A DNA stretch of 64,000 nucleotides, taken from the IMG/VR virus record IMGVR_UViG_3300037467_000966, one strand, 5' to 3'. Each line of letters begins with the position of its first letter. The first letter of the stretch is position 1. The DNA comes from a virus (taxonomy: Duplodnaviria > Heunggongvirae > Uroviricota > Caudoviricetes). This document shows, piece by piece, positions 3,921 to 50,059 of the stretch. The position numbers and the translations under genes are program-made. The notes under the pieces were generated by a model. That model was not told the DNA's origin and made no database searches. It saw only the letters and a program-made list of their open reading frames with translations.

Positions 3921-4637
3921 TTATCCTGCTTGAGCCTCCATGCTATCTAATAATTCATTGACCAGTTCATCTGCTTCCGCATTCTCTTCTCGTGGTACAT
4001 GAATGAGATTAATACTATCAAACTCTTCTAGTAATTCTAATGCACAATCACGTAATCGTATTAAGTGTGGCGCTTTTGTAGTAGAAATTCGGTTGACTTG
4101 TGTGACAACCATTCTTGAATCGCTAAAGACATCAATGTGTTTTGCATTTAAACCGTTCGCCAATAGGTATTCTAATGCTTCGATTAATGCAACATATTCA
4201 GCTGTATTGTTTGTAGCTTCTGCTTCTGCGATGTGTTTTTCTGGGTCTTCATGTTGGAGTCTTGGCAACTGAATGGATGAACCGAGATACTTCGCTCCCT
4301 TGTGTAATAGCTGACTATCTCCACGAACAATGTAGGATATGCCGCTTACATTCGGTCTGGTGGTATCGTTGTTCCCTCGTGCCGCGCCGTCCACATTCAC
4401 AACCAACCGTTGGTAGTTATACTTAGGCTCTAGTTTCTCTTTAATTTCTCTGATAAGTAAATCAGTATCATGTCCATCTTCCTTTAATTGTTCAATGAGC
4501 TTACGAAGCTCTTCATTCAATTCATATAGTTGTTGGAGCTTGATAATGTTTCCTTTAAATTTGTCCAGCTGGTAAATCTTCTCCATGTATACTCTAAGAA
4601 GTTCCACCGCCATGTTGTAAGATACTTTGTAATTCAT
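3921..4637 (-). CDS. rnhA: Ribonuclease H (RNase HI-like) with N-terminal coiled-coil extension
   Basis: NVDGAARGN...AEYVALIEALEYL...DSRMVVTQ...HVPREENAEADELVN matches the RNase H catalytic DEDD signature order. Confidence 0.8.
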   Translation of the reverse strand: MNYKVSYNMAVELLRVYMEKIYQLDKFKGNIIKLQQLYELNEELRKLIEQLKEDGHDTDLLIREIKEKLEPKYNYQRLVVNVDGAARGNNDTTRPNVSGISYIVRGDSQLLHKGAKYLGSSIQLPRLQHEDPEKHIAEAEATNNTAEYVALIEALEYLLANGLNAKHIDVFSDSRMVVTQVNRISTTKAPHLIRLRDCALELLEEFDSINLIHVPREENAEADELVNELLDSMEAQAG

Positions 4638-5425
4638 AAGATGTTTTCCCCTTTTTGATGTGTTTATTTATCACTATCTTTGCCTCCTTTTGTTTAACAA
4701 ATACAATGGGACTTCAGCTCAACTGAATACCTGCCACTCAGTTATTTCACGTATATACTCGTACTCGGTCTTCACTACTGAGGGAATGCGCCACCACTCG
4801 CCGTGGGATTACACGTCTTACATATACTTCGTCTACTAGCCACTGACTTTCATAGGGAATTTTAGGGGCGGACAGTGCCGTGACCCTTGGCTCTTCTATT
4901 GCTTGGGCGTCCCTTGCATGACATGAATTCGGTTTATCTAGCAGTACGAATTTTTTCGTGGCTGGCAACTAAGCCTCCATTAGCCGAAGCTAAAGCTAGG
5001 TACAGTCTAGAATGCCGCCTAGACCGCAGCCAGTAGTTCCCTACTTATCTTCCCCTTACTAGAGATTCCTAATATCTTATGTCAGAACACAGTATGAATT
5101 CTCATACCGTCAGCTCACATAAGATTAACTTAGATTTCGGATAGGCTGTCAGGTCACGCTCCTTCATTTATCTGCTGGTGCATCCCCCAGCTAGCACCTA
5201 CGCATCCTAATCTCTAAGTAAGACAAGAAGACTTCAGATATGTCGTCACGGATATTCTTCGGCCCACCGTGCTATCCCAGCCGATATATATGGGATTACT
5301 AAAAGTTCTTGGCATCTTCTTTATCTGGTGACGGGGTTAGTTTTTGGAAGGAGAATAAACCGTCATATCTCCTGGCTCTGGTCAACATTTTTTATTTAAG
5401 CGGGAAAGCTGCCAAACAAAACCCT

Positions 5426-5512
5426 TGGAGCTGCCAGGAGGATTCGAACCTCCGACCTCTCCCCGTCGATGTGGACTCTTGGGGGAGTATTCTACCGCTG
5501 AACTACAGCAGC
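5426..5512 (-). tRNA. tRNA-like gene with encoded CCA. Canonical acceptor, D and T arms, but a 19-nt anticodon loop (12-nt insertion). Anticodon possibly AAG if the insertion lies after position 37.
   Basis: Minus-strand read GCUGCUG-UA-GUUCAGCGGUAGAAU-A-CUCCC[19 nt]GGGAG-AGGUC-GGAGGUUCGAAUCCUCC-UGGCAGC-U-CCA. The 7-bp acceptor stem pairs (two GU), and the T loop UUCGAAU is canonical. Confidence 0.5.
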
Positions 5513-5619
5513 ATATAAAAGACACCCCGCGAAGGGTGCCCCAGTGAAAAAATTATTCTGCCTGCTCGTAGTATTTCTCTAGGATGTTTTGGATATCCAC
5601 ATATGGAAAACTTTCTGTG

Positions 5620-5823
5620 TTATACATTTGCATCATTCTCCTTTTTCTTTTTCTTTAATTTATGCAAACCGAAATCAACAAGCGCATGTAAACCAAACCC
5701 AAGAAGGAATAGTTTAATAAGCCCGAAGAATCCAGTGAAATTAAATCCAAGATTAATTAAAGCTGTTGCAATAATAACGTACAGGATAGCGGCAATAATG
5801 AATCGTAAGTTACGATGACTCAT
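5620..5823 (-). CDS. Small hydrophobic membrane protein
   Basis: 67-aa ORF with two predicted TM stretches and a lysine-rich C-terminus. Abuts the vWA gene stop. Confidence 0.4.
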   Translation of the reverse strand: MSHRNLRFIIAAILYVIIATALINLGFNFTGFFGLIKLFLLGFGLHALVDFGLHKLKKKKKENDANV

Positions 5824-6614
5824 TACAATACAACACCTTTTGATTTCGCTTGACGTAACCAGTTAGGGAATTCTTTTAATACGGCTTCGTAAAGCTTCTC
5901 GTCAGCAATTCCATTCACATCTGAAATCTTTGTGAAGTCAGCGTTGTCTAAGTAGCGGCCTGTTAAATCATCCAATGATTGCAGATAGTTGAATGACTCA
6001 TTGCCGATACCGATGAACTGCCAGAAGATACCCTGCTTAGCAGCCTCAGTAATCACACGAGTTGTTTCAGAACGGTCACCATTGTCACCATCTGTCATGA
6101 AGAATACCAGTGTAGGAATCTTAACAGGCTTTACATCTTCAGGCATAACCGTCTTGCTTACTACTTCTGTTACGGTCTTTGATTTTGCACCGAACAGTTT
6201 GCCAAGGAATCCAGCTTCCACTTCTTTTGTTACTTCTTCTTGAACAACTTGTGGAGTGATAGCTGTGCCGTACTTAGCAATAATTTGTTTCATTACTGGA
6301 GCATACTCCGTACCACCAGATGCACGAAGACCCTTCTTCTTTAAGAAGTCTTTGTGATTGCTTTCATTGGCAGAACCAATATATTCATAGCCATGATTGA
6401 AAGCATAGATGTCGATTGATTTGTTTGGGTCCATGTTCATTCCAACGCCGATGAAGCGGTCAGCTTGTTCTTGAACATTCCCTTTGTCAATTTCCCATCC
6501 CATAGAACCTGATTTGTCGATAGCGAATACGATGTTCGCTTGAAGACCAGCAAGCCCTAACTTCTCTAATACGATTGCAGATTTCTTTTTTAAATCAATT
6601 ACGTTACCCAACAT
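5823..6614 (-). CDS. von Willebrand factor A (vWA) domain protein, TerY-like
   Basis: MIDAS motif VFAIDKSGSMG followed by ...FFMTDGDNGD. Sits next to the TerC/TerD genes. Confidence 0.8.
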   Translation of the reverse strand: MLGNVIDLKKKSAIVLEKLGLAGLQANIVFAIDKSGSMGWEIDKGNVQEQADRFIGVGMNMDPNKSIDIYAFNHGYEYIGSANESNHKDFLKKKGLRASGGTEYAPVMKQIIAKYGTAITPQVVQEEVTKEVEAGFLGKLFGAKSKTVTEVVSKTVMPEDVKPVKIPTLVFFMTDGDNGDRSETTRVITEAAKQGIFWQFIGIGNESFNYLQSLDDLTGRYLDNADFTKISDVNGIADEKLYEAVLKEFPNWLRQAKSKGVVL

Positions 6615-6619
6615 GTTTC

Positions 6620-6660
6620 TCCCCCTAGAAATTAGTAAAGCGGCCCCGAAAGACCGCTTA
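6620..6660 (-). terminator. Intrinsic terminator-like hairpin after terC
   Basis: aagcgg-ccccgaaaga-ccgctt stem-loop, then an A/U-rich tail on the transcribed strand. Confidence 0.45.
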
Positions 6661-6730
6661 TTTAAAGAATCGTCTGATAGCTCTGATGGCTCTGTCTATA
6701 GATGTAATCATGCTGATAAGTTGTCTGATA

Positions 6731-7483
6731 TTACGCGGCAACATTTTTCTTGCTGCCCTTGTTCTTTAATGCGTGAACCACAAATGTTAATCCAAATGTG
6801 ATGATTAAAACAATAAAGAATAACCAGTCTGGAGCTTCATATGAAGTCCAGTGTTGACCGATAAGGTTACCTACTTCATGCAGTTCAGTTACAAACATCT
6901 TAACCGCAATCAAGAAGATAAGAACGAATGCTGTTCCTTCCATCTCTGGAACCTTATTGATAAGCTTAATGAATACACCTGCAACAGAACGCATCATTAA
7001 GATACCAAGGATACCACCAGCGATTAATACATAGAAGCTTTGAGATAAAGCAAATGCTGCTAAGATACTATCAACAGAGAAAGCAATGTCCATTAACTCA
7101 ACAGAGATAATTGTTGTAACGAATGGCGACAAGCCAAGCTTACCAAAGAATGCTTGAACCTTGTTTTCTTCGAACTCGTCATTGATACCATCGCCGTCTT
7201 CGTCTTTCTTCTTAGAGGCAAAATGCTTAATAGATAAATAAGCAAGGTATAAAGCACCAACTGTTTTGATGGCCCATAAGTATTCCCAATCAGCGATATA
7301 AGCCCAGCCGAAGATACATACAGCACGGAAGATAATCGCGCCCCACATACCATAGAAAAGTGCTTTCTTTTGCTGACTAAGTGGTAATCTCTTTGTCATT
7401 ACTGCAAGTACTAATGCATTGTCTGCGCTTAGCAAACCTTCAAGTACGACTAACGTAACTACTAGTCCAATGATTGATAACAA
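6731..7483 (-). CDS. terC: TerC-family integral membrane protein
   Basis: Multi-TM 250-aa ORF with the TerC signature LLSADNALVLAV near the N-terminus. Confidence 0.85.
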   Translation of the reverse strand: MLSIIGLVVTLVVLEGLLSADNALVLAVMTKRLPLSQQKKALFYGMWGAIIFRAVCIFGWAYIADWEYLWAIKTVGALYLAYLSIKHFASKKKDEDGDGINDEFEENKVQAFFGKLGLSPFVTTIISVELMDIAFSVDSILAAFALSQSFYVLIAGGILGILMMRSVAGVFIKLINKVPEMEGTAFVLIFLIAVKMFVTELHEVGNLIGQHWTSYEAPDWLFFIVLIITFGLTFVVHALKNKGSKKNVAA

Positions 7484-7634
7484 CTATTCCAACTCCCTAA
7501 TTAATATTTGTTTTTGATTTTGTCCACTACATGTTTTGCTGCTGCCTTCACATTATCGTGAAAGAAGTGACCTACCACATAACCAACCACGAATGTAAGA
7601 ATCGTCCCTGACATCTTCATTCCCCCTGTAGATA

Positions 7635-7672
7635 TAATATCTATATATAAGAAAGGGCCGAAGCCCTCTCGT
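7635..7672 (-). terminator. Intrinsic terminator after terD (RNA hairpin GAGAGGGC-UUCG-GCCCUUUC plus U/A-rich tail)
   Basis: gaaagggccgaagccctctc inverted repeat immediately downstream of the 7676 stop. Confidence 0.55.
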
Positions 7673-7675
7673 ATT

Positions 7676-8257
7676 TTAAGCGACTGTTAATCCATAATCT
7701 TTAACGAAACCAGCTAGGCCATTTGCATAACCAGCACCGATAGCGTTGAATTTCCATTCGCCGTTTACTTTATAAATCTCACAAACTGCTACTCCAGTTT
7801 CAATAGAGAAGTCCTCACCTAAATCAAAGCGAAGGATTTCTTCATTTGTGATTTGGTCATACACGCGGACATAAGCATTGGATACTTGTCCGAAGTTTTG
7901 AGAACGACGCTCTGCTTCATAGATAGTTACTACGAAAGCAAGCTTCTGAATGTAAGCAGGCATTACTGAAAGGTCAACTTTGATTGTCTCATCATCGCCC
8001 TCTGTGCCACCAGTCAACTCATCCCCTGAGTGCTCAACTGCACCAGAAGCATGACGTAGATTATTATAGAATATAAAGTCGCCTTCGTCACGAGTTTTAT
8101 TTAATTCATTAACCATGAATACTGAAACATCCAGGTCAAAGTCTGCTCCGCCAGCATACTTATTTGTATCCCAGCCTAATGCTACATTAATCTTTGAAAG
8201 GTTTGTTCCTTTCGTTAAATCAACACGTTGCCCTTTTTTTACCAACTCAACTGCCAT
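7676..8257 (-). CDS. terD: TerD-domain stress/tellurite-resistance family protein
   Basis: GWDTN...GADFDLDVSVF...GD..TGGTEGDDETIKVDL...FVVTIY.A...QNFGQVSNAYVRV..GEWKF.A.GAGYA.GLA is a near-textbook TerD. Confidence 0.9.
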   Translation of the reverse strand: MAVELVKKGQRVDLTKGTNLSKINVALGWDTNKYAGGADFDLDVSVFMVNELNKTRDEGDFIFYNNLRHASGAVEHSGDELTGGTEGDDETIKVDLSVMPAYIQKLAFVVTIYEAERRSQNFGQVSNAYVRVYDQITNEEILRFDLGEDFSIETGVAVCEIYKVNGEWKFNAIGAGYANGLAGFVKDYGLTVA

Positions 8258-8388
8258 GATTCATTTCCCCTTTTCATAAAAGTCTTTTACTTCCATCCAT
8301 GCTTTTTTATAACCATAGTCATGACCTAAACAAAAGCCACCAACGACTGCGATGGTGACTATGCCTAGCATCTTTAACACTTCAATCA

Positions 8389-9006
8389 TTAGTTGATTCC
8401 AGCTACATAAGCCTCAAGACCGCCGCCGTAACCAGCGCCAACAGCTTTGAATTTCCAATCTCCACTGTGCTCATAAAGCTCACCAATAACCACGCAAGTT
8501 TCAATTGAGAAGTCCTCTGATAAGTCATAACGAGCTACCACTTCACCAGTTCCATCATTGACTACTTGCACATACGCATTGTGTACTTGACCAAAGTTTT
8601 GGTTACGTGTTGCTGCATCATAGATAGTGATAGCAAAACGAACAAACTTTGCAGCGATAGGAAGCTTCGCTAAATCAATTGTTACTGTTTCATCAGGGCC
8701 AGTACCTTCACCAGTACGGTTATCCCCAGAGGATACCACGCTGCCCGTAGGGTCACTTGGATTATTGAAGAATACGAATGAGTTCTCAGATATGATTTTG
8801 CCTCCATCACCTAAGATTGCAGCAGATGCATCTAAGTCAAATGCAGAACCGTCATACTGATTAGCATCCCAACCTAATTCCACTTTGAATTTTGTTACTC
8901 CTGGTACTGATTTTGTAAGATTGATGTTACCGCCTTTTTGCAAATTAATCATTTTGTTATTCCTCCCAATTTTTCTTTTGATTTTTTCTTGAATATATTT
9001 TATCAC
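8389..9006 (-). CDS. terD: TerD-domain protein (second paralogue)
   Basis: LGWDANQYDGSAFDLDASAAIL...SGDNRTGEGTGPDETVTIDL...QNFGQVHNAYVQV...GDWKFKAVGAGYGGGL has very high similarity to canonical TerD. Confidence 0.9.
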   Translation of the reverse strand: MIKYIQEKIKRKIGRNNKMINLQKGGNINLTKSVPGVTKFKVELGWDANQYDGSAFDLDASAAILGDGGKIISENSFVFFNNPSDPTGSVVSSGDNRTGEGTGPDETVTIDLAKLPIAAKFVRFAITIYDAATRNQNFGQVHNAYVQVVNDGTGEVVARYDLSEDFSIETCVVIGELYEHSGDWKFKAVGAGYGGGLEAYVAGIN

Positions 9007-9081
9007 TGCTCTTCACTTGAGTCATAGGCTTGCGCTCCCAAGTGATTCGCGGTGGAGTTACCTTTGGCTTTTTCTTTTTCA

Positions 9082-9327
9082 TCATGATTCCTCCGCCTTT
9101 ATGCTAAATCTTGTTCTGCAAACAGGGCATTTAAATCCAGCACTGAATTCTTCGACTGGCTTTATCCTTGGAACATAATAGTTCTCAAGGATTCTTCGAA
9201 GAGCATTTAGTTCAAAGTTGTTCAACTTCTTCAATGTCTTCTCCTCAAAGAAATATACAATGCCTGGATTTGGCGGCGGAGCTAACTGCATAATTTCTGC
9301 GATGTGCTCATCCTGTCTTCTACCCAT
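9082..9327 (-). CDS. Small hypothetical protein with C-terminal CPVC zinc-ribbon-like motif
   Basis: 81-aa ORF containing FKCPVCRTRF. Confidence 0.4.
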   Translation of the reverse strand: MGRRQDEHIAEIMQLAPPPNPGIVYFFEEKTLKKLNNFELNALRRILENYYVPRIKPVEEFSAGFKCPVCRTRFSIKAEES

Positions 9328-9339
9328 TCAATCACTTCC

Positions 9340-9546
9340 TTACTCATCTAACTTAAATGGTTCCCATACCTTATCATCCCAGCTAGAGGATATGTTGCTC
9401 AGCTTTTCGCTGTCAAACTTCTGTCTGAAGTGTTCTTCCAACTGTTTAACCACGGCGGGATTTACAACAAAGCCACCCATGTTATGGTCAATCAGAAAGT
9501 TCTTCAGGATAATCTTGCGAATAATATCATACTCTTTATTCACCAT
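9340..9546 (-). CDS. Hypothetical protein
   Basis: 68-aa ORF collinear with its neighbours. Confidence 0.4.
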   Translation of the reverse strand: MVNKEYDIIRKIILKNFLIDHNMGGFVVNPAVVKQLEEHFRQKFDSEKLSNISSSWDDKVWEPFKLDE

Positions 9547-9785
9547 TCATCTGGCCTCCATCCTAAAACATGTACAACAAAATATCCAACAGGGAAAATT
9601 AAAACAAGAAAGCCAATAACGCAACTTGTTATAATGGGCTGTTGTTTAAAACCTGCAATAACAAGCATGACAACTGCAATTGCTAGAAGCAGGATTAATA
9701 GAATTTGTATACCTACCATGAAGTAAGTGCCCCAGCTTATCCAGGGAAACTTCTTTTTCTTTTCTTTGTTAAGATTGACTGCCAT
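9540..9785 (-). CDS. Small membrane protein (two TM helices)
   Basis: 81-aa ORF with hydrophobic core ...GTYFMVGIQILLILLLAIAVVMLVIAGF. Confidence 0.45.
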   Translation of the reverse strand: MAVNLNKEKKKKFPWISWGTYFMVGIQILLILLLAIAVVMLVIAGFKQQPIITSCVIGFLVLIFPVGYFVVHVLGWRPDEW

Positions 9786-9786
9786 A

Positions 9787-10047
9787 TCAATACTCCTTAC
9801 TTAGTAGCATTGCAGCGCCCTTATTGCTCTTTAAAGATTCGCTTAGGTACAATGGAGTAAACCCACGGTCAAAGGTTAGAATGCCTTCCCAACCTGCGTA
9901 CAAGCTGCCGTAGTTTTCTACAAGTCTAAAAGTTCCTTCGCATTTGTTTGGGGCCATACTAATTAACTCAAGCTTATGAAAGCTATACTCATATACCCAG
10001 CCAACTTTAAAACGATTGCCTTGTGAGTCACGTCTTTCTGGTGGCAT
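9787..10047 (-). CDS. KEW-tail family small protein (C-terminus ...AAMLLSKEY)
   Basis: First member, in transcription-terminal position, of a tandem array of small proteins sharing the C-terminal LL(S/D)KEW peptide. Confidence 0.55.
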   Translation of the reverse strand: MPPERRDSQGNRFKVGWVYEYSFHKLELISMAPNKCEGTFRLVENYGSLYAGWEGILTFDRGFTPLYLSESLKSNKGAAMLLSKEY

Positions 10048-10048
10048 G

Positions 10049-10342
10049 TTACCACTCCTTACTTAATAAATTAACGGCTTCTTTATTTGATTCAATAGCA
10101 ATTTCAACGGCGTCTTCTGCTGTTATACCTAGTCCTACTCCATTGCCCATAGGAACATTCATCCTACGTACAAACTCGGAGTAGTTATAATCATCAGGTT
10201 CCAAGCGGAGAACCTTCTCATTATCTTCACTAGGAATTACCCGATAGCCACCATTAGATTTCTTTTCTACATCAAAGACTTAACCTATCATTTTTTTATA
10301 CCACTTGCTAGTGGAAGAAATACTTTTAATTCGTACTTTCAT
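10049..10342 (-). pseudogene. KEW-tail family member interrupted by an in-frame TAA after codon 20 (nonsense pseudogene, or shorter product from an internal start)
   Basis: Minus-strand frame reads MKVRIKSISSTSKWYKKMIG*VFDVEKK...NKEAVNLLSKEW. The stop follows an A7 tract and the same frame continues to the family C-terminus. Confidence 0.5.
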
Positions 10343-10343
10343 C

Positions 10344-11445: not shown

Positions 11446-12044
11446 ACCATCACTCCTTGAATAAAAAAAATTCTTTACCCAATAGAAAGTACAAACAAGA
11501 TAGGATTCGAATCAGCGTGTGCATGCCCCAGGTTAGCAGCTAAAGGAAACCATAGGTTCCTCCACTCATCTAATACCTATCATTGATAAGAGAACGTCAG
11601 ACCAGGCTGGTAATTTCTAGGCATGCATTTAACCCCACCTGTACCATGAGGTCACCTACAACGTCTTGGAATTCTCTTATGCGTACTCTCTATTCAGTAA
11701 AGAATTTAAAAAGCTCCTTGGGCAGGAAGAAAATAAGATACAATCATAGGCTTCAGTGCTTACCATCCGACAGTGGGACTCGAACCCACACGCCTCTCGG
11801 CGGACAGAGCTATCTCCGTCTGCGTCTGCCAATTTCGCCATGCCCGATGGGGCTTACTTGGCACCTATGATATGGAGAAGAACTTCGGATTGGTGTCTAT
11901 TGCAGACCCCAGAAGGAATCGAACCAGCTACTTTCCGCTTATAGGCGGCTGTTTTACCCAATAAACTATGCGGGCCTCCACTACACCGTAGTTCCTGGCA
12001 TTCTTCTCATTCTTATTCTCTACCTGCCCAAAGAGCAAGTAACC

Positions 12045-42882: not shown

Positions 42883-42892
42883 CTAATCACTC

Positions 42893-43117
42893 CTAGTCAC
42901 ATAATAATTGAACAGCCTTTTTTAGTTCAGCCTTGTTAATATGAATAACGCGGCTTTCTGTTTCACCATAAGAGCCATATATATAAAGTTCAACAGAGTC
43001 TCTATAATGAGAAGACTCCTCTAAGGCAACGTTTGTTTGTATGCCATCGTGATTGCCAGTGCCATGGTCTTGTACTTCAACTTCAATTTTAATTTTTGCC
43101 ATCACGCTTCCCTCCAA
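42893..43117 (-). CDS. Small hypothetical protein
   Basis: 74-aa ORF. Confidence 0.45.
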   Translation of the reverse strand: MEGSVMAKIKIEVEVQDHGTGNHDGIQTNVALEESSHYRDSVELYIYGSYGETESRVIHINKAELKKAVQLLCD

Positions 43118-43284
43118 AATTTATTGCACGTTGGACAATAGAATTCATCAATGCTGCCCACATCTTCTGTAGCAGGCAAAGAACCTAGAACCACGATATT
43201 ATGAAAAGCATCTCGACAGATGCCTTCTTCAGCTTGAATAAAGCGACGGGTAGGATATTCCTTTTCTTCATTTGGATTTGTCAT
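43102..43284 (-). CDS. Small protein with CPTC motif
   Basis: 60-aa ORF. Confidence 0.4.
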   Translation of the reverse strand: MTNPNEEKEYPTRRFIQAEEGICRDAFHNIVVLGSLPATEDVGSIDEFYCPTCNKFWREA

Positions 43285-43466
43285 CAGAACGGCTCCTTAT
43301 AAGTTAGTACTAGCTTGCCATCAAATACAATCAGACTGATTGGTTCAATGTACGGGTTCCTATCAATAAAGCTTTCATATCCATGAGCAAATACGAACGT
43401 TTCAACTAACAGCTTTCTTGCTGGTGGCATTGACGGCTTCAACAGTTCTAACGGGTCCATTCTCAT
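43284..43466 (-). CDS. Small hypothetical protein
   Basis: 60-aa ORF. Confidence 0.35.
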   Translation of the reverse strand: MRMDPLELLKPSMPPARKLLVETFVFAHGYESFIDRNPYIEPISLIVFDGKLVLTYKEPF

Positions 43467-43551
43467 TCTCCTTTACGATAATTTTATTTAAGTATTGCTG
43501 GGTTAAATGCGATAATCCTTTTTCATTTACCTTTGTATTTATCTTCGGCAT
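43402..43551 (-). CDS. Small basic protein (internal start MPKINTK...). Overlaps the previous ORF, so one of the two may be spurious.
   Basis: 49-aa ORF. Confidence 0.25.
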   Translation of the reverse strand: MPKINTKVNEKGLSHLTQQYLNKIIVKENENGPVRTVEAVNATSKKAVS

Positions 43552-43659
43552 TGTGATTCTCCTCCTCCATTGGTGCTTCTTTAAACTGGTCAAAAATAAA
43601 AGTAGCAAAGTAAGCTATGCATGCGGCAATTAAATACCACCACCAATGTAAATGCATGA

Positions 43660-45333: not shown

Positions 45334-45452
45334 TACTTAGTACCTCCGAAAAAGATTCGCCATAACTTAACAGCCCACTTCGCTAGAATCGGGCCGTAGA
45401 AAAATCCTGCGCCAATCATTGTAATAAGTACTAGCGCATAATACATTAACAT
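45333..45452 (-). CDS. Micro membrane protein (39 aa), TAATG-coupled to the SPFH gene
   Basis: Minus-frame MLMYYALVLITMIGAGFFYGPILAKWAVKLWRIFFGGTK. Confidence 0.35.
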   Translation of the reverse strand: MLMYYALVLITMIGAGFFYGPILAKWAVKLWRIFFGGTK

Positions 45453-45461
45453 ACAATCACC

Positions 45462-45605
45462 TCAATGCATCATGGTAAGTAGTGTAAAAAATCCACCTAC
45501 CAAGAAAACTAAAAGGAGGACAATGCCTCCTAAAACCATGCCCCATCTTTTGTCCAGAATTCCAATTACAAAACAGGCAAAGACTGCCAAAAATAATGCG
45601 TACAT
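45462..45605 (-). CDS. Micro membrane protein (47 aa)
   Basis: Minus-frame MYALFLAVFACFVIGILDKRWGMVLGGIVLLLVFLVGGFFTLLTMMH. Start abuts the upstream stop. Confidence 0.35.
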   Translation of the reverse strand: MYALFLAVFACFVIGILDKRWGMVLGGIVLLLVFLVGGFFTLLTMMH

Positions 45606-45863
45606 TTAAGCCTCCATTCCGTCATCAACTAGCACAATCTTGTAGCCATCGACGCGGTCAATTAATTTTCCATACCCATTAAACGATGTGAAGCCCATTT
45701 GTTCTGTCCAGAACTTCTGTGCCAGTACAACTGCTTCAAGTGCTGAATGAGCGGCGTATAATCTACCTTCATCAACGTGAACTCCTGCTTCAGGATGTAT
45801 TGCAATACCAACCACTTTATACAATTGCTTTGGTGATACCATATTCATTAGTTCGCTTGTCAT
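45606..45863 (-). CDS. Hypothetical protein
   Basis: 85-aa ORF. Confidence 0.5.
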   Translation of the reverse strand: MTSELMNMVSPKQLYKVVGIAIHPEAGVHVDEGRLYAAHSALEAVVLAQKFWTEQMGFTSFNGYGKLIDRVDGYKIVLVDDGMEA

Positions 45864-46124
45864 TTAAAATTCCCCCTGTAATAATCTTTTTGCTTCCCTA
45901 TTAGTTCGAGCAACCAACGATTTAAATCGTGATTCATCAATGCCAATTACATCTCCAGGGTCATGCCCTTTCGATACAGTAAACTCAGTAATTCTAACTG
46001 ACCATACATCGCTGTGTCGATGCTCTGTAACAATACCTCTGAAGATATAACTGTCATCATTTCTTGAGCGATGCTGGCTGTAAAAATTATATTCACGACC
46101 AATTTCTATCTCCACGACTACCAC
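45864..46124 (-). CDS. KEW-tail-related small protein (variant ...EAKRLLQGEF)
   Basis: 86-aa ORF. Confidence 0.5.
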   Translation of the reverse strand: MVVVEIEIGREYNFYSQHRSRNDDSYIFRGIVTEHRHSDVWSVRITEFTVSKGHDPGDVIGIDESRFKSLVARTNREAKRLLQGEF

Positions 46125-48062: not shown

Positions 48063-48259
48063 ATGACTAAAGGGAGATACCAGCGCGGCACCTCCCTACT
48101 TTAACTTATATTCTATCACACTTTTACCTTCCATAGAAGCGAATAACATATCCTGCTTATGCGCACATCCAGCAAACGGGTCTTCCAATGTACCACATAG
48201 TAAACAACAAGCACTGCCTTCCATTTCATCAATGATTGGATGACTCTGCATTTCTCTCA

Positions 48260-48520
48260 TTATTCAACAACCTCCGTAAGGGAATACATTAAATCTAACA
48301 ACGGCTCGGATAAAACCTCCTCAATATAGCCGCGGTAAGGACTATCCAAATAATCAATCTCTAACGTAGGCTCTTCACCCTGAGAATCAACTATATGAAT
48401 CGTAGCCTCATCACCATCAGGAACAGTAACAGTAACGACGGCAACAACACCACTCTCAAATAAATCATCCGTAGGTTCCTCTACAACTAAATTAGCATTA
48501 CCAATACTAAACATATACAT
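48260..48520 (-). CDS. Acidic small protein
   Basis: 86-aa ORF. Confidence 0.5.
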   Translation of the reverse strand: MYMFSIGNANLVVEEPTDDLFESGVVAVVTVTVPDGDEATIHIVDSQGEEPTLEIDYLDSPYRGYIEEVLSEPLLDLMYSLTEVVE

Positions 48521-48710
48521 TCCTCCTACTAATCGGGTGCAGGATAAACTCCCTGCTTATTAAGAATAAATCTATCATCAAACAGAATACAGTCCATAGC
48601 TTAAAGAACCATGGTATAACAGACCACATAGTAAATGCCATACATGATTCAATCAAGAACGACATAACCATCCATGACTTAGCACCAACACTTACCGACT
48701 GTCTATCCAC
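48507..48710 (-). CDS. Small membrane protein, paralogue of 33322-33561
   Basis: See 33322 entry. Confidence 0.5.
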   Translation of the reverse strand: MDRQSVSVGAKSWMVMSFLIESCMAFTMWSVIPWFFKLWTVFCLMIDLFLISREFILHPISRRNVYV

Positions 48711-49174
48711 AACATCACCTCCTAATGGCGGGCGGGATTACCTTATGATTACAACATCACTATATAGTACAATAAGACATAGACAACTATATAGAGATAG
48801 ACCATATAGCATTACCCCATACAAGATAAGCTAATAGAACACCTAACCACATAGAAGTACCTATACCTAAACAAAACCATATAGCACATTTATTATAATT
48901 ATCCATACAACTTTCCTTTCATAGGTGTATTTTCCACTTTTACCTCTTATTATAGTACTTATGACTTTAGTCATTAGTCACCCATAATATAGGCACAAGG
49001 TACAAATAAATAAACATAACCTCTCAAACCCTTGGTACGCAAGGACTTTTTACTACCAGTACCCTCAAACATTCATTGTGTCTTACCTAGGCCCACTTTT
49101 AGTGTGTCCATTTGTTACCTTAAGGTTAAGTAAGTTACCATGACTTTATGACATCCAGAGAGAAAGGGAGTCAC

Positions 49175-49423
49175 CTACACGGCGCTCCCTATGCGTTCCT
49201 CTATATAGTCTCTGTCCATCTCCATCTCCATAGGATGGCTTATATAGTATTCCTCCAAGCGGCGGCGTATCTCCACTGGACCTTCTTCGGTATCACACTC
49301 TGGTAATACAGGGTCCTGTACTATATAGATATCATTGCCTATATAAGAGATGAATAGCCCGTCGGTGCCCAGTGTCATCCCTTCCTTTAATACATACATA
49401 CACTTATCAATAAACTCTTCCAT
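49175..49423 (-). CDS. Hypothetical protein inside the CTATATAG-rich spacer
   Basis: 82-aa ORF. Contains motif copies itself, so the call is uncertain. Confidence 0.4.
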   Translation of the reverse strand: MEEFIDKCMYVLKEGMTLGTDGLFISYIGNDIYIVQDPVLPECDTEEGPVEIRRRLEEYYISHPMEMEMDRDYIEERIGSAV

Positions 49424-49519
49424 TCTACCATTCCTCCTATATAGTACTACTTATGCCTATTAGCTAAATCATATAGCATTATGACACCACATATGAAAAA
49501 CAATGCCGCCACGTATAAC

Positions 49520-49612
49520 ACTCTATTCTATATAGTCTTCCTCTCCCTATATAGTTCCTGCTATATATACCATATACCTATATAGTACATGATACTCTCT
49601 ATATACATCCTA
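49520..49612. repeat. Array of CTATATAG-core repeats (5 copies, ~14-19 bp spacing)
   Basis: ctatatag at 49528, 49547, 49561, 49578 and 49597. Confidence 0.6.
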
Positions 49613-50059
49613 CCTATTAATTCAATTCAATTAATCAGGCGTAATACGCCCACCAGCGAAAGCCTCCTCTAAAGGGGTCCCCCCACAACTTCAACCAGCC
49701 GAAGGCGAATAGTCAGCCGAAGGCAGGTCCTCCTATATAGGGACTCCCACACCCTATTTGCATATGGCTCGCTCATCGCTCGCCATCGGGCTTGCACCTG
49801 CTACCGCAGGGTCCGATAAAGAACGGGGCCTCTATAGCTAAACGCTCCCCGCGTGCGTCGGCGCAACAAGTTCGAATCTTAAGGGTCCCCTTCCCATGCG
49901 TAAACTCCGTGACAGCTTCCCCCCATTCACTTGAACTTGTAACGCGCCTCCTACCAGTCAAGCTTGGCCTCGCTTCGCTCGGCGTATCGGGCGGGTATAT
50001 TCTCCAGCGTATATAGATAATGTATAAAACTAGCAGCCCATACAAGTAATCATCTCCCT

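Follow-up and report, generated by a model that had tools for sequence, protein, structure and literature searches.

The gene-free stretch at positions 4638-5425 of a 64,000-nucleotide sequence from a virus of the Caudoviricetes (IMG/VR record IMGVR_UViG_3300037467_000966; this whole stretch of DNA is called the window below) lies between a tRNA-like gene and an RNase HI-like gene, and we found that it encodes, on the minus strand, a conserved and selected RNA with a complex fold, a conclusion that we hold with high confidence. The structured RNA spans about 0.7-0.8 kb and is multi-domain: a more variable and less conserved 5' part, named module A (5373-5128, about 245 nt), precedes module B (about 5125-4701, about 425 nt), which is present in every relative. 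Matching no catalogued RNA family, it is a candidate new large phage RNA. We put at roughly 55% the probability that it is a stand-alone, tRNA-adjacent phage RNA representing a new family of the GOLLD/ROOL kind, with the mechanism described below, and not a gene-specific regulator.

It is the comparative evidence that is decisive here, not the evidence from the single sequence. From one sequence alone the case is weak: as arguments, the G+C content and a quoted complementary pair are weak or wrong, and the whole-region folding energy is unremarkable. A first-pass annotation, based on the window only, had proposed a large structured RNA beside a tRNA-like gene, in a region without convincing open reading frame (ORF) and with a clearly higher G+C content. 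The lack of a convincing ORF holds, the longest frames being 73 aa on the minus strand and 69, 59 and 49 aa on the plus strand, and Pfam gives no match for the 73-aa frame. The adjoining gene is indeed tRNA-like (5429-5512, minus strand; Rfam tRNA, 51.7 bits). The G+C content is mildly raised (0.442 against a window mean of 0.411), but "clearly higher" is only weakly confirmed, with a standard deviation of 0.024 for equal-sized windows, 11% of which reach 0.442, and a value of 0.435 for the DNA polymerase III alpha (Pol III alpha) gene. As for the pair of complementary segments that had been quoted, gccgaagctaaagctagg is present once, at 4983, and its partner cctagctttagcttcggc occurs nowhere on that strand of the window. 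The folding energy of the whole region is unexceptional (z = -0.96 on the minus strand and -1.84 on the plus strand); despite this, local structure is present, with z = -6.4 for the hairpin at 5125-5074. The proposal of a large structured RNA itself was nevertheless upheld, by conservation in 13 other loci and by covarying helices.

Loci around relatives of the RNase H gene were fetched, and homologues of the region were searched by BLAST and with an nhmmer profile of module B. The region upstream of RNase H has homologues in 13 other jumbo-phage-like contigs, whose RNase H proteins are 57-89% identical to that of the window. In these 13 other distinct lineages, B was found (nhmmer E-values from 1e-87 to 1e-16) in the non-coding gap before RNase H or before one interposed ORF, which encodes 188-233 aa where present; L193 is an exception, with two small called genes (57 and 89 aa) separating B from RNase H. 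The window matches its three closest relatives (L182-L184) in two blocks, 5373-5128 (A), which aligns directly after their tRNA genes, and 5127-4638 (B and the leader), which aligns to the non-coding stretch ahead of RNase H. The nhmmer profile also locates B in L185, L186, L187, L188 (the same as L004 and L005), L189, L190/L191, L192, L193, L006 and L007, always in a gene-free gap, and gene calling left the homologous stretch empty in all relatives. Aligned to the three closest relatives, B shows an identity of 0.76-0.79 and A of 0.82-0.84, whereas the neighbouring RNase H gene reaches 0.61-0.64 at its third codon positions. A and B therefore change more slowly than third codon positions, which argues for purifying selection on this non-coding DNA. 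Within the 64-kb window, neither A nor B has a second copy.

Between A and B, four relatives carry a two-ORF cassette (L182 3840-4531, L183 3840-4527, L184 3873-4573 and L191 230-786), at a site that corresponds to the junction of positions 5128 and 5127 in the window. The cassette encodes proteins of 131-135 aa (phrog_19476, function unknown) and 86-99 aa, and is missing from the window, L185, L189 and L192. In a more distant lineage (L324-L326, RNase H 54% identical), a gene-free gap of about 455 nt, at 4526-5000, stands before RNase H. The B profile fails to detect this gap, which by eye shows a few similar motifs (GUAAUUCCC.., UCUUCCCUUCC) and could hold a diverged form of the RNA.

Module B consists of a hairpin (P1), a helix (P2) that closes a swappable domain and a long-range helix (P3) around a conserved core. 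Its elements in the window are the following.

5074-5125, minus strand: hairpin P1, inverted repeat I1 (z = -6.4).
5067-5073, minus strand: junction AUUAGGA between P1 and P2, from alignment A2; also in module A at 5211-5205.
4937-5064, minus strand: P2 domain, in which the helix 5064-5057 with 4946-4937 closes a variable multi-branch domain.
4925-4935, minus strand: junction AAACCGAAUUC between P2 and P3, with G, A, A, U and C (near-)invariant in A2.
4701-4920, minus strand: P3 (4920-4909 with 4712-4701) and its enclosed domain, the interior partly solved.
4908-4904 and 4715-4713, minus strand: conserved internal loop GCC(C)A / GAA.
4903-4901 with 4718-4716, minus strand: 3-bp helix AGC/GCU next to P3.
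4745-4840, minus strand: central module with AGUAGAC.., GUAAUCC, P5 (4806-4794) and GCAUUCCCU (4789-4781).
4721-4743, minus strand: hairpin Pz, directly 5' of GAGCUGAA (z = -3.6).

The alignment of 14 sequences of B (A2) shows near-invariant blocks separated by inserts of variable length. These blocks are, first, AUCUUAUGUGAG..UUCUGACAUAAGAUAUUAGGA, AAACCGAAnUC, GAUGCCAAGCAA and GUAAGUCC, and then GCGUUCCCU, CGUCCCUGUG and UGAGCUGAAGUCC..UUGUAU. RNAalifold on A2 recovers P1 and the long-range P3 with its adjoining 3-bp helix. In the 35 pairs of this P1 and P3 set, 92.9% of the cells are paired, and shifting the 3' partners by 1-3 columns leaves 36-47%. Changes on both sides occur in 28 of the 35 pairs, and none of 500 shuffles reaches the observed values. 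The covariation across related phages that the first-pass annotation had suggested looking for is thus present, long-range helices included. Moreover, about 63 of 478 cells (~13%) are G-U pairs. Read from the opposite strand, these would turn into A-C mismatches, which assigns the RNA to the minus strand.

Considering the helices one by one, P1 comprises an outer and an upper stem, each of 9 bp, together with a conserved UGAG/CUGA internal loop and a tetraloop, and its 17+4 pairs are 90-95% paired in the 14 sequences, 17 pairs being changed on both sides. P1 was also compared with group II domain V, for which its length and the side of its bulge are wrong and Rfam gives no match, and with a k-turn, for which the 3-nt bulge is missing. 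The domain enclosed by P2 (110-200 nt) cannot be aligned between lineages and occurs in two unrelated versions among the relatives; since the window and L183 differ in version at 87% RNase H identity, these domains have been exchanged. The strands of P2 and P3 nonetheless recognise each other, the partner from the same sequence usually being ranked first: cognate P2 strands reach -12.8 kcal/mol against -7.4 for non-cognate ones, with the cognate partner first or second of 13 in 11 sequences, and the cognate P3 duplex reaches -13.2 against -5.9 kcal/mol. A pairing of the AUUAGGA junction with GUCCU was rejected, as covariation is absent in L192. The 14 pairs of the P3 set are 88-93% paired, with 11 changed on both sides, and the minimum-energy fold contains P3 in every sequence but L006 and L007 (12 of 14). 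Nearly all sequences have GCCA facing GAA in the loop that separates P3 from the 3-bp helix.

The interior of P3 is less regular. RNAalifold on the central module alone predicts no pairs, because MAFFT cannot align its variable hairpins. P5, which sits after GUAAGUCC, has a stem that varies by lineage and was read by eye as CCAC/GUGG, CUGCC/GGUAG, CCAG/CUGG, CCCC/GGGG, CUCA/UGAG or CCGC/GCGG. The stem of Pz, also read by eye, differs in nearly every lineage, and 12 of the 14 sequences have UGG[CU] or GGC in its loop, a complement of the GCCA loop. From this conserved complementarity, a GCCA:UGGC pseudoknot between the Pz loop and the internal loop is plausible; both sides being nearly invariant, the pairing offers no test by covariation.

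Module A was resolved in the same way from five sequences.

5128-5373, minus strand: module A, conserved in L182, L183, L184 and L191.
5372-5350, minus strand: 5' hairpin GGAGA..UCUCC.
5321-5314 with 5232-5225, minus strand: helix X, bearing a GCCA (5313-5310) / GAA (5235-5233) loop.
5219-5213 with 5134-5128, minus strand: helix Y, enclosing GAUUAGGAU (5212-5204) and CCGAAA (5140-5135).

RNAalifold on these sequences gives the 5' hairpin, X, an inner 3-bp helix and Y. Of the cells, 92.2% are paired, whereas sliding the partners lowers this to 38-48%; both sides have changed in 15 of 42 pairs. The 3-bp helix by X covaries, being AGC/GCU in L183 and L184, AGA/UCU in the window, AGU/ACU in L182 and GAU/AUC in L191. 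The internal loop GCCA/GAA of helix X is the same as that at P3, and GAUUAGGAU..CCGAAA inside Y repeats the two junction motifs found on either side of P2 in B. Given this common GCCA/GAA loop and AUUAGGA..CCGAA junction, A and B are made of the same parts. A precedes the cassette ORFs in L182-L184 and L191 and lies directly upstream of B in the window; A therefore needs no downstream ORF. In L185, L189 and L192, a shorter X-type domain with GCCA/GAA lies directly before B with no ORFs between them, so the contiguous A and B of the window is one normal form.

The 5' side of the region adds a third component, the tRNA-like gene, to these modules.

5426-5512 (Rfam match 5429-5512), minus strand: tRNA-like gene with encoded CCA.
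5374-5425, minus strand: 55-nt spacer between the tRNA-like gene and A, found in the window only.

The cloverleaf of the tRNA-like gene has normal acceptor, D and T arms and scores 51.7 bits, where the gathering threshold is 29. Its "anticodon" loop is 17 nt long (CAAGAGUCCACAUCGAC) on a UCCCC/GGGGA stem, where Rfam shows an 18-nt insertion, and ARAGORN assigns it no anticodon, the loop departing from the usual 7 nt. The same odd arm is kept in L184 (3492-3576) and L185 (4224-4314), in which the acceptor and T arms differ. The gene thus looks like a dedicated tRNA-like element and not a decoding tRNA. Complementarity of the 17-nt loop to A or B is no better than that of shuffled loops. Genes for tRNAs or tRNA-like elements lie just upstream of the region in most lineages, and in L183 and L184 A starts, with no spacer, 4-5 nt after the tRNA discriminator base. 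The spacer of the window repeats the tRNA 3' end, TTGGCAGCT, at 5415-5407, and copies of the tRNA-like 3' end UGGCAGCU stand at 5427-5435 and 5407-5415 (minus strand). At about 5541-5520 (minus strand), adjoining the tRNA-like gene on its upstream side, a G+C-rich 9-bp hairpin is followed by UCUUUUAUAU (z = -2.8); this hairpin is probably the terminator of the 67-aa gene, and a consensus terminator scan did not list it. Other unusual tRNAs, with anticodons that ARAGORN cannot assign, occur in the window at 11764-11848 and 11902-11976 (minus strand), and relatives (L185 3681-3755, L192 1513-1586) have a tRNA with a CUA anticodon (amber-suppressor type) and a tRNA with a 4-base anticodon.

We favour a stand-alone RNA for several reasons. 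A needs no ORF after it and the gene after B varies; the size and modular complexity far exceed those of known cis-regulators; and tRNA or tRNA-like genes are found immediately upstream, while one lineage terminates right after B. In the mechanism that we propose, the RNA would be transcribed together with the tRNA-like gene and its 5' end would be set by tRNA-processing enzymes, both made likely by the position of A 4-5 nt past the tRNA in L183 and L184. It would then act as a stable folded molecule in its own right, with scaffolding or assembly, tRNA or protein binding, and catalysis as candidate roles. More tentatively, and at less than even odds, the tRNA-like gene, A and B together may form an undescribed class of ornate phage RNA, made of GCCA/GAA-loop modules and an intron-accessory domain and acting alone. 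A tRNA-containing precursor, located at the head of the block of replication genes, would release such an RNA, which might serve in higher-order assembly, in capture of tRNA 3' ends through UGGY and GCCA, or as a ribozyme.

To our knowledge, large bacterial and phage RNAs with a complex fold are rare, and the known classes (rRNA, RNase P, introns, OLE, GOLLD, ROOL and raiA) are biochemically unusual. If the stand-alone reading is true, a new family from Bacillus-type jumbo phages would be added to the few tRNA-adjacent phage RNAs, and its modular build, with GCCA/GAA loops, swappable domains, a module in common with an intron and a fused aberrant tRNA, would provide experimental handles.

Several observations weigh against a stand-alone RNA. 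In most lineages, B runs without a terminator to a Shine-Dalgarno sequence 10-60 nt downstream; in physical terms at least, the RNA therefore sits in the leader of an mRNA. The GOLLD (RF01998) and ROOL (RF03087) models give no match in the window, L185 or L191 at E-values up to 10, so the RNA belongs to neither family. No match was obtained in deposited phage genomes (INPHARED) or PLSDB plasmids by blastn and tblastn with the window region, the RNase H protein and the regions of two relatives, and IMG/VR yielded no true RNase H relatives; three pattern scans of IMG/VR gave chance matches only, none of them upheld by nhmmer. The covariation set comprises 14 sequences, some closely related, and its shuffle control ignores phylogeny. 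P5, Pz and other short hairpins were read by eye, and the automated comparison of cognate and non-cognate strands, imprecisely anchored, was uninformative for P5 and weak for Pz. Finally, the ends, abundance and processing of the RNA are those that we infer from sequence.

The main rival is a giant cis-acting 5' leader of the mRNA of a replication operon (uORF, RNase H, OB-fold protein and Pol III alpha), which would govern translation, stability, processing or read-through and could respond to a tRNA or another ligand. It concerns what follows module B.

4690-4683, minus strand: strong Shine-Dalgarno sequence AAAGGAGG, 3' of B.
4674 (GTG) to about 4594, minus strand: upstream ORF (uORF) of 26 aa, overlapping the RNase H start at 4637.

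In ten lineages (the window, L182-L185, L187, L189 and L191-L193), B is followed by such a uORF of 9-29 aa with its own Shine-Dalgarno sequence, placed 10-35 nt past P3, and the uORF stops at, or overlaps, the RNase H start, an arrangement that suggests translational coupling. An additional hairpin stands after B in L188, L186 and L193. The uORFs of 9-17 aa in relatives end in ..PSD, ..RSD or ..KSG, just ahead of the Shine-Dalgarno sequence of RNase H. This conserved uORF speaks for a leader, as does the constant proximity of B to a strong Shine-Dalgarno sequence on the same strand; A itself, in L182-L184 and L191, stops about 25 nt ahead of the Shine-Dalgarno sequence of an ORF. In L006, an intrinsic-terminator-like hairpin with a T-run stands right behind P3, as in the expression platforms of riboswitches, and the GCCA loop and UGGY hairpin loop resemble the NCCA-UGGN pairing by which T-box leaders recognise tRNA ends. 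Nevertheless, the gene that follows is not constant (uORF and RNase H, a 188-233-aa ORF or a 57-aa ORF), and B, not an ORF, comes next after A or its X-type equivalent in four lineages. A length of 425-790 nt with swappable domains is far above that of known bacterial cis-regulators, and no T-box or riboswitch family of Rfam matches at E-values up to 10. By inspection of the alignment, we found no conserved terminator/antiterminator or alternative pairing that sequesters the Shine-Dalgarno sequence, the only terminator being that of L006. A sequestering switch through the 3' strand of P3 was rejected as not conserved: the consensus UCCUUUU/AAAAGGA complementarity is lost in the window and L192, both of which keep P3 by covariation. 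On balance we regard a leader as less likely than a stand-alone RNA; if it is one, it would be by far the largest known in phage.

A link with group I introns comes from the only place outside the family that the B profile matches, L002 10473-10577 (nhmmer, E = 6e-6 among all loci; E = 6.9e-7 with the alignment). This match lies inside a sequence that interrupts Pol III alpha of Bacillus phage vB_BceM_WH1, and the same string occurs in phage Edson (L003 10557-10674). The interrupting sequence, with exon boundaries mapped by tblastn, is a group I intron: Rfam Intron_gpI gives 28.7 bits, and the P, Q, R and S elements are recognisable. Its score is below the Rfam gathering threshold for group I (28.7 against 50 bits). 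The matching stretch falls in a 154-nt insertion of the P6 hairpin, so the approximately 100 nt of the B core, in the central module at 4745-4840, represent a module common to B and to a peripheral domain of the intron. Both share ..AAUAUCAUACG.., GUAAUCCCGUAAGUC, a hairpin, UUCCCUCC, CCGUCCCUGUGCG and GUGAAC, while the rest of B and all of A are without intron counterpart.

One could thus see the region as a relic or derivative of a group I intron (RF00028), or as a mobile peripheral domain, selfish and with no function for the phage, the more so as introns and homing endonuclease genes abound in the relatives and B domains are swapped between the close ones. We consider this improbable. The P/Q/R/S catalytic core is not found in A or B, where no GUUCA..GACUA / AUAGUC was seen, and Intron_gpI at E-values up to 10 gives no match in the region, whereas the same model detects the WH1 intron and that of L007 (59.6 bits). 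The region splits no gene and shows no evident splice sites, its flanks being complete (the tRNA-like gene, and an RNase H gene with its own start). It also keeps the same place down to 57% RNase H identity, with compensatory changes and slow divergence that indicate selection.

We give as little credence to an element acting as DNA in front of the replication genes, be it an origin of replication, a promoter array or a packaging site. The position immediately upstream of the RNase H and DNA polymerase genes would suit it, and so would a weak promoter-like site in the spacer (TTGGCA-17-AAAAAT, 5415-5387), a second weak site at 5581-5552 and the terminator-like hairpin upstream of the tRNA-like gene. 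On the other side, promoter-like sites in the region are no commoner than chance, no iterons or AT-rich repeats occur, the cumulative GC skew has no turning point here, and covarying helix strands 130-250 nt apart with G-U pairs on one strand are the signature of an RNA. A candidate promoter TTGAGC..TTGTAT was rejected, its spacing being too short and the same bases covarying as RNA. A degraded protein gene is very unlikely: two cassette ORFs between A and B in close relatives are missing in the window, so gene loss occurred at this spot, but the window aligns to the non-coding flanks of these ORFs and not to the ORFs, no ORF is called in A or B of any relative, indels are of arbitrary length, and covariation tracks base pairing and not codons.

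All substantial ORFs of the window are on the minus strand. The genes around the region are, in the direction of transcription, as follows.

Minus strand, upstream: TerD, TerD, TerC, a vWA-TerF-like gene, a gene for a 67-aa membrane protein and the tRNA-like gene.
Minus strand, then: the non-coding stretch, the RNase HI-like gene, an OB-fold protein gene and Pol III alpha.
4637-3921, minus strand: RNase HI-like gene (Pfam RVT_3 and RNase_H).
3283-86, minus strand: Pol III alpha, 1065 aa, uninterrupted.

The RNase H protein of the window was found on a 526-kb JGI contig. Its 42 relatives are 50-89% identical and come from metagenomic and Logan contigs, which reach about 247 kb; one relative belongs to the assembly of a Bacillus isolate, with the species given as Bacillus stercoris (GCA_030143775.1, contig JASMRE010000002.1), in which the RNA homologue lies at L193 3880-4309. 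Pol III alpha is about 60% identical to the polymerases of the Bacillus jumbo phages KLEB27-3, WH1 and Edson. Intact in the window, it is cut into 2-3 pieces in L001-L003, L185-L188, L193 and L007, by group I introns and homing-endonuclease genes (HNH, LAGLIDADG). The tellurite-resistance-like set (two TerD, TerC and vWA-TerF-like) at 5823-9006 (minus strand) precedes the RNA locus, and its synteny extends to several relatives (L182-L185, L189 and L193). Elsewhere in the window, minus-strand ORFs of 90 aa or more are also missing from the long stretches at 48063-49772, 9007-10343, 45334-46117 and 42883-43659, in which Rfam at gathering scores detects nothing.

The comparison with known RNA families was made with Rfam 15. 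At gathering scores, the whole window contains tRNAs only, and at E-values up to 10 nothing relevant was found in window positions 4400-5700, L185 3500-5000 and L191 1-1300. The families to which the first-pass annotation had pointed (group I and group II introns, RNase P RNA, tmRNA and 6S) are without match to their models here, and ARAGORN finds no tmRNA.

T-box and riboswitch leaders are likewise structured RNAs directly before a Shine-Dalgarno sequence and an ORF, with L006 showing a terminator after the closing helix; the present RNA is 2-4 times larger and its downstream gene varies.

GOLLD is a phage RNA of several hundred to about 800 nt with many helices, located beside tRNA genes, with a conserved 3' part, a less conserved 5' part and tRNAs sometimes joined to it, and its function is unknown (PMC12286853; PMC5737381). 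ROOL, of about 580 nt, has a complex fold, occurs in phages and prophages, often near tRNA islands, and is also of unknown function (PMC5737381; PMC12286853). A homo-oligomeric cage made of RNA only is a criterion for both (PMC12286853). The RNA described here resembles GOLLD in its jumbo-phage-like context, with a tRNA-like gene directly upstream, a universal B and a variable A, a likeness of context alone and not of membership; together, A and B measure about 670 nt, which the tRNA-like gene extends to about 810 nt. It differs in having no sequence motif in common with GOLLD and in leading straight into a Shine-Dalgarno sequence and an ORF, and while multimeric cages have been seen for GOLLD, the present RNA is known from its sequence. 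With ROOL it shares a large size, a complex fold and a tRNA-adjacent location in phage, but its helices and conserved nucleotides are different, and it is so far restricted to a clade of Bacillus-type jumbo phages.

The last comparison is with the eukaryotic MALAT1-mascRNA system, in which a tRNA-like element stands at the 3' end of a long RNA and tRNA-processing enzymes define the ends. Here too, a tRNA-like fold is joined to a long structured RNA, at a distance of 4-5 nt in L183 and L184, although the tRNA-like element is on the 5' side; by analogy, processing of the RNase P or RNase Z type could set the end of the phage RNA.

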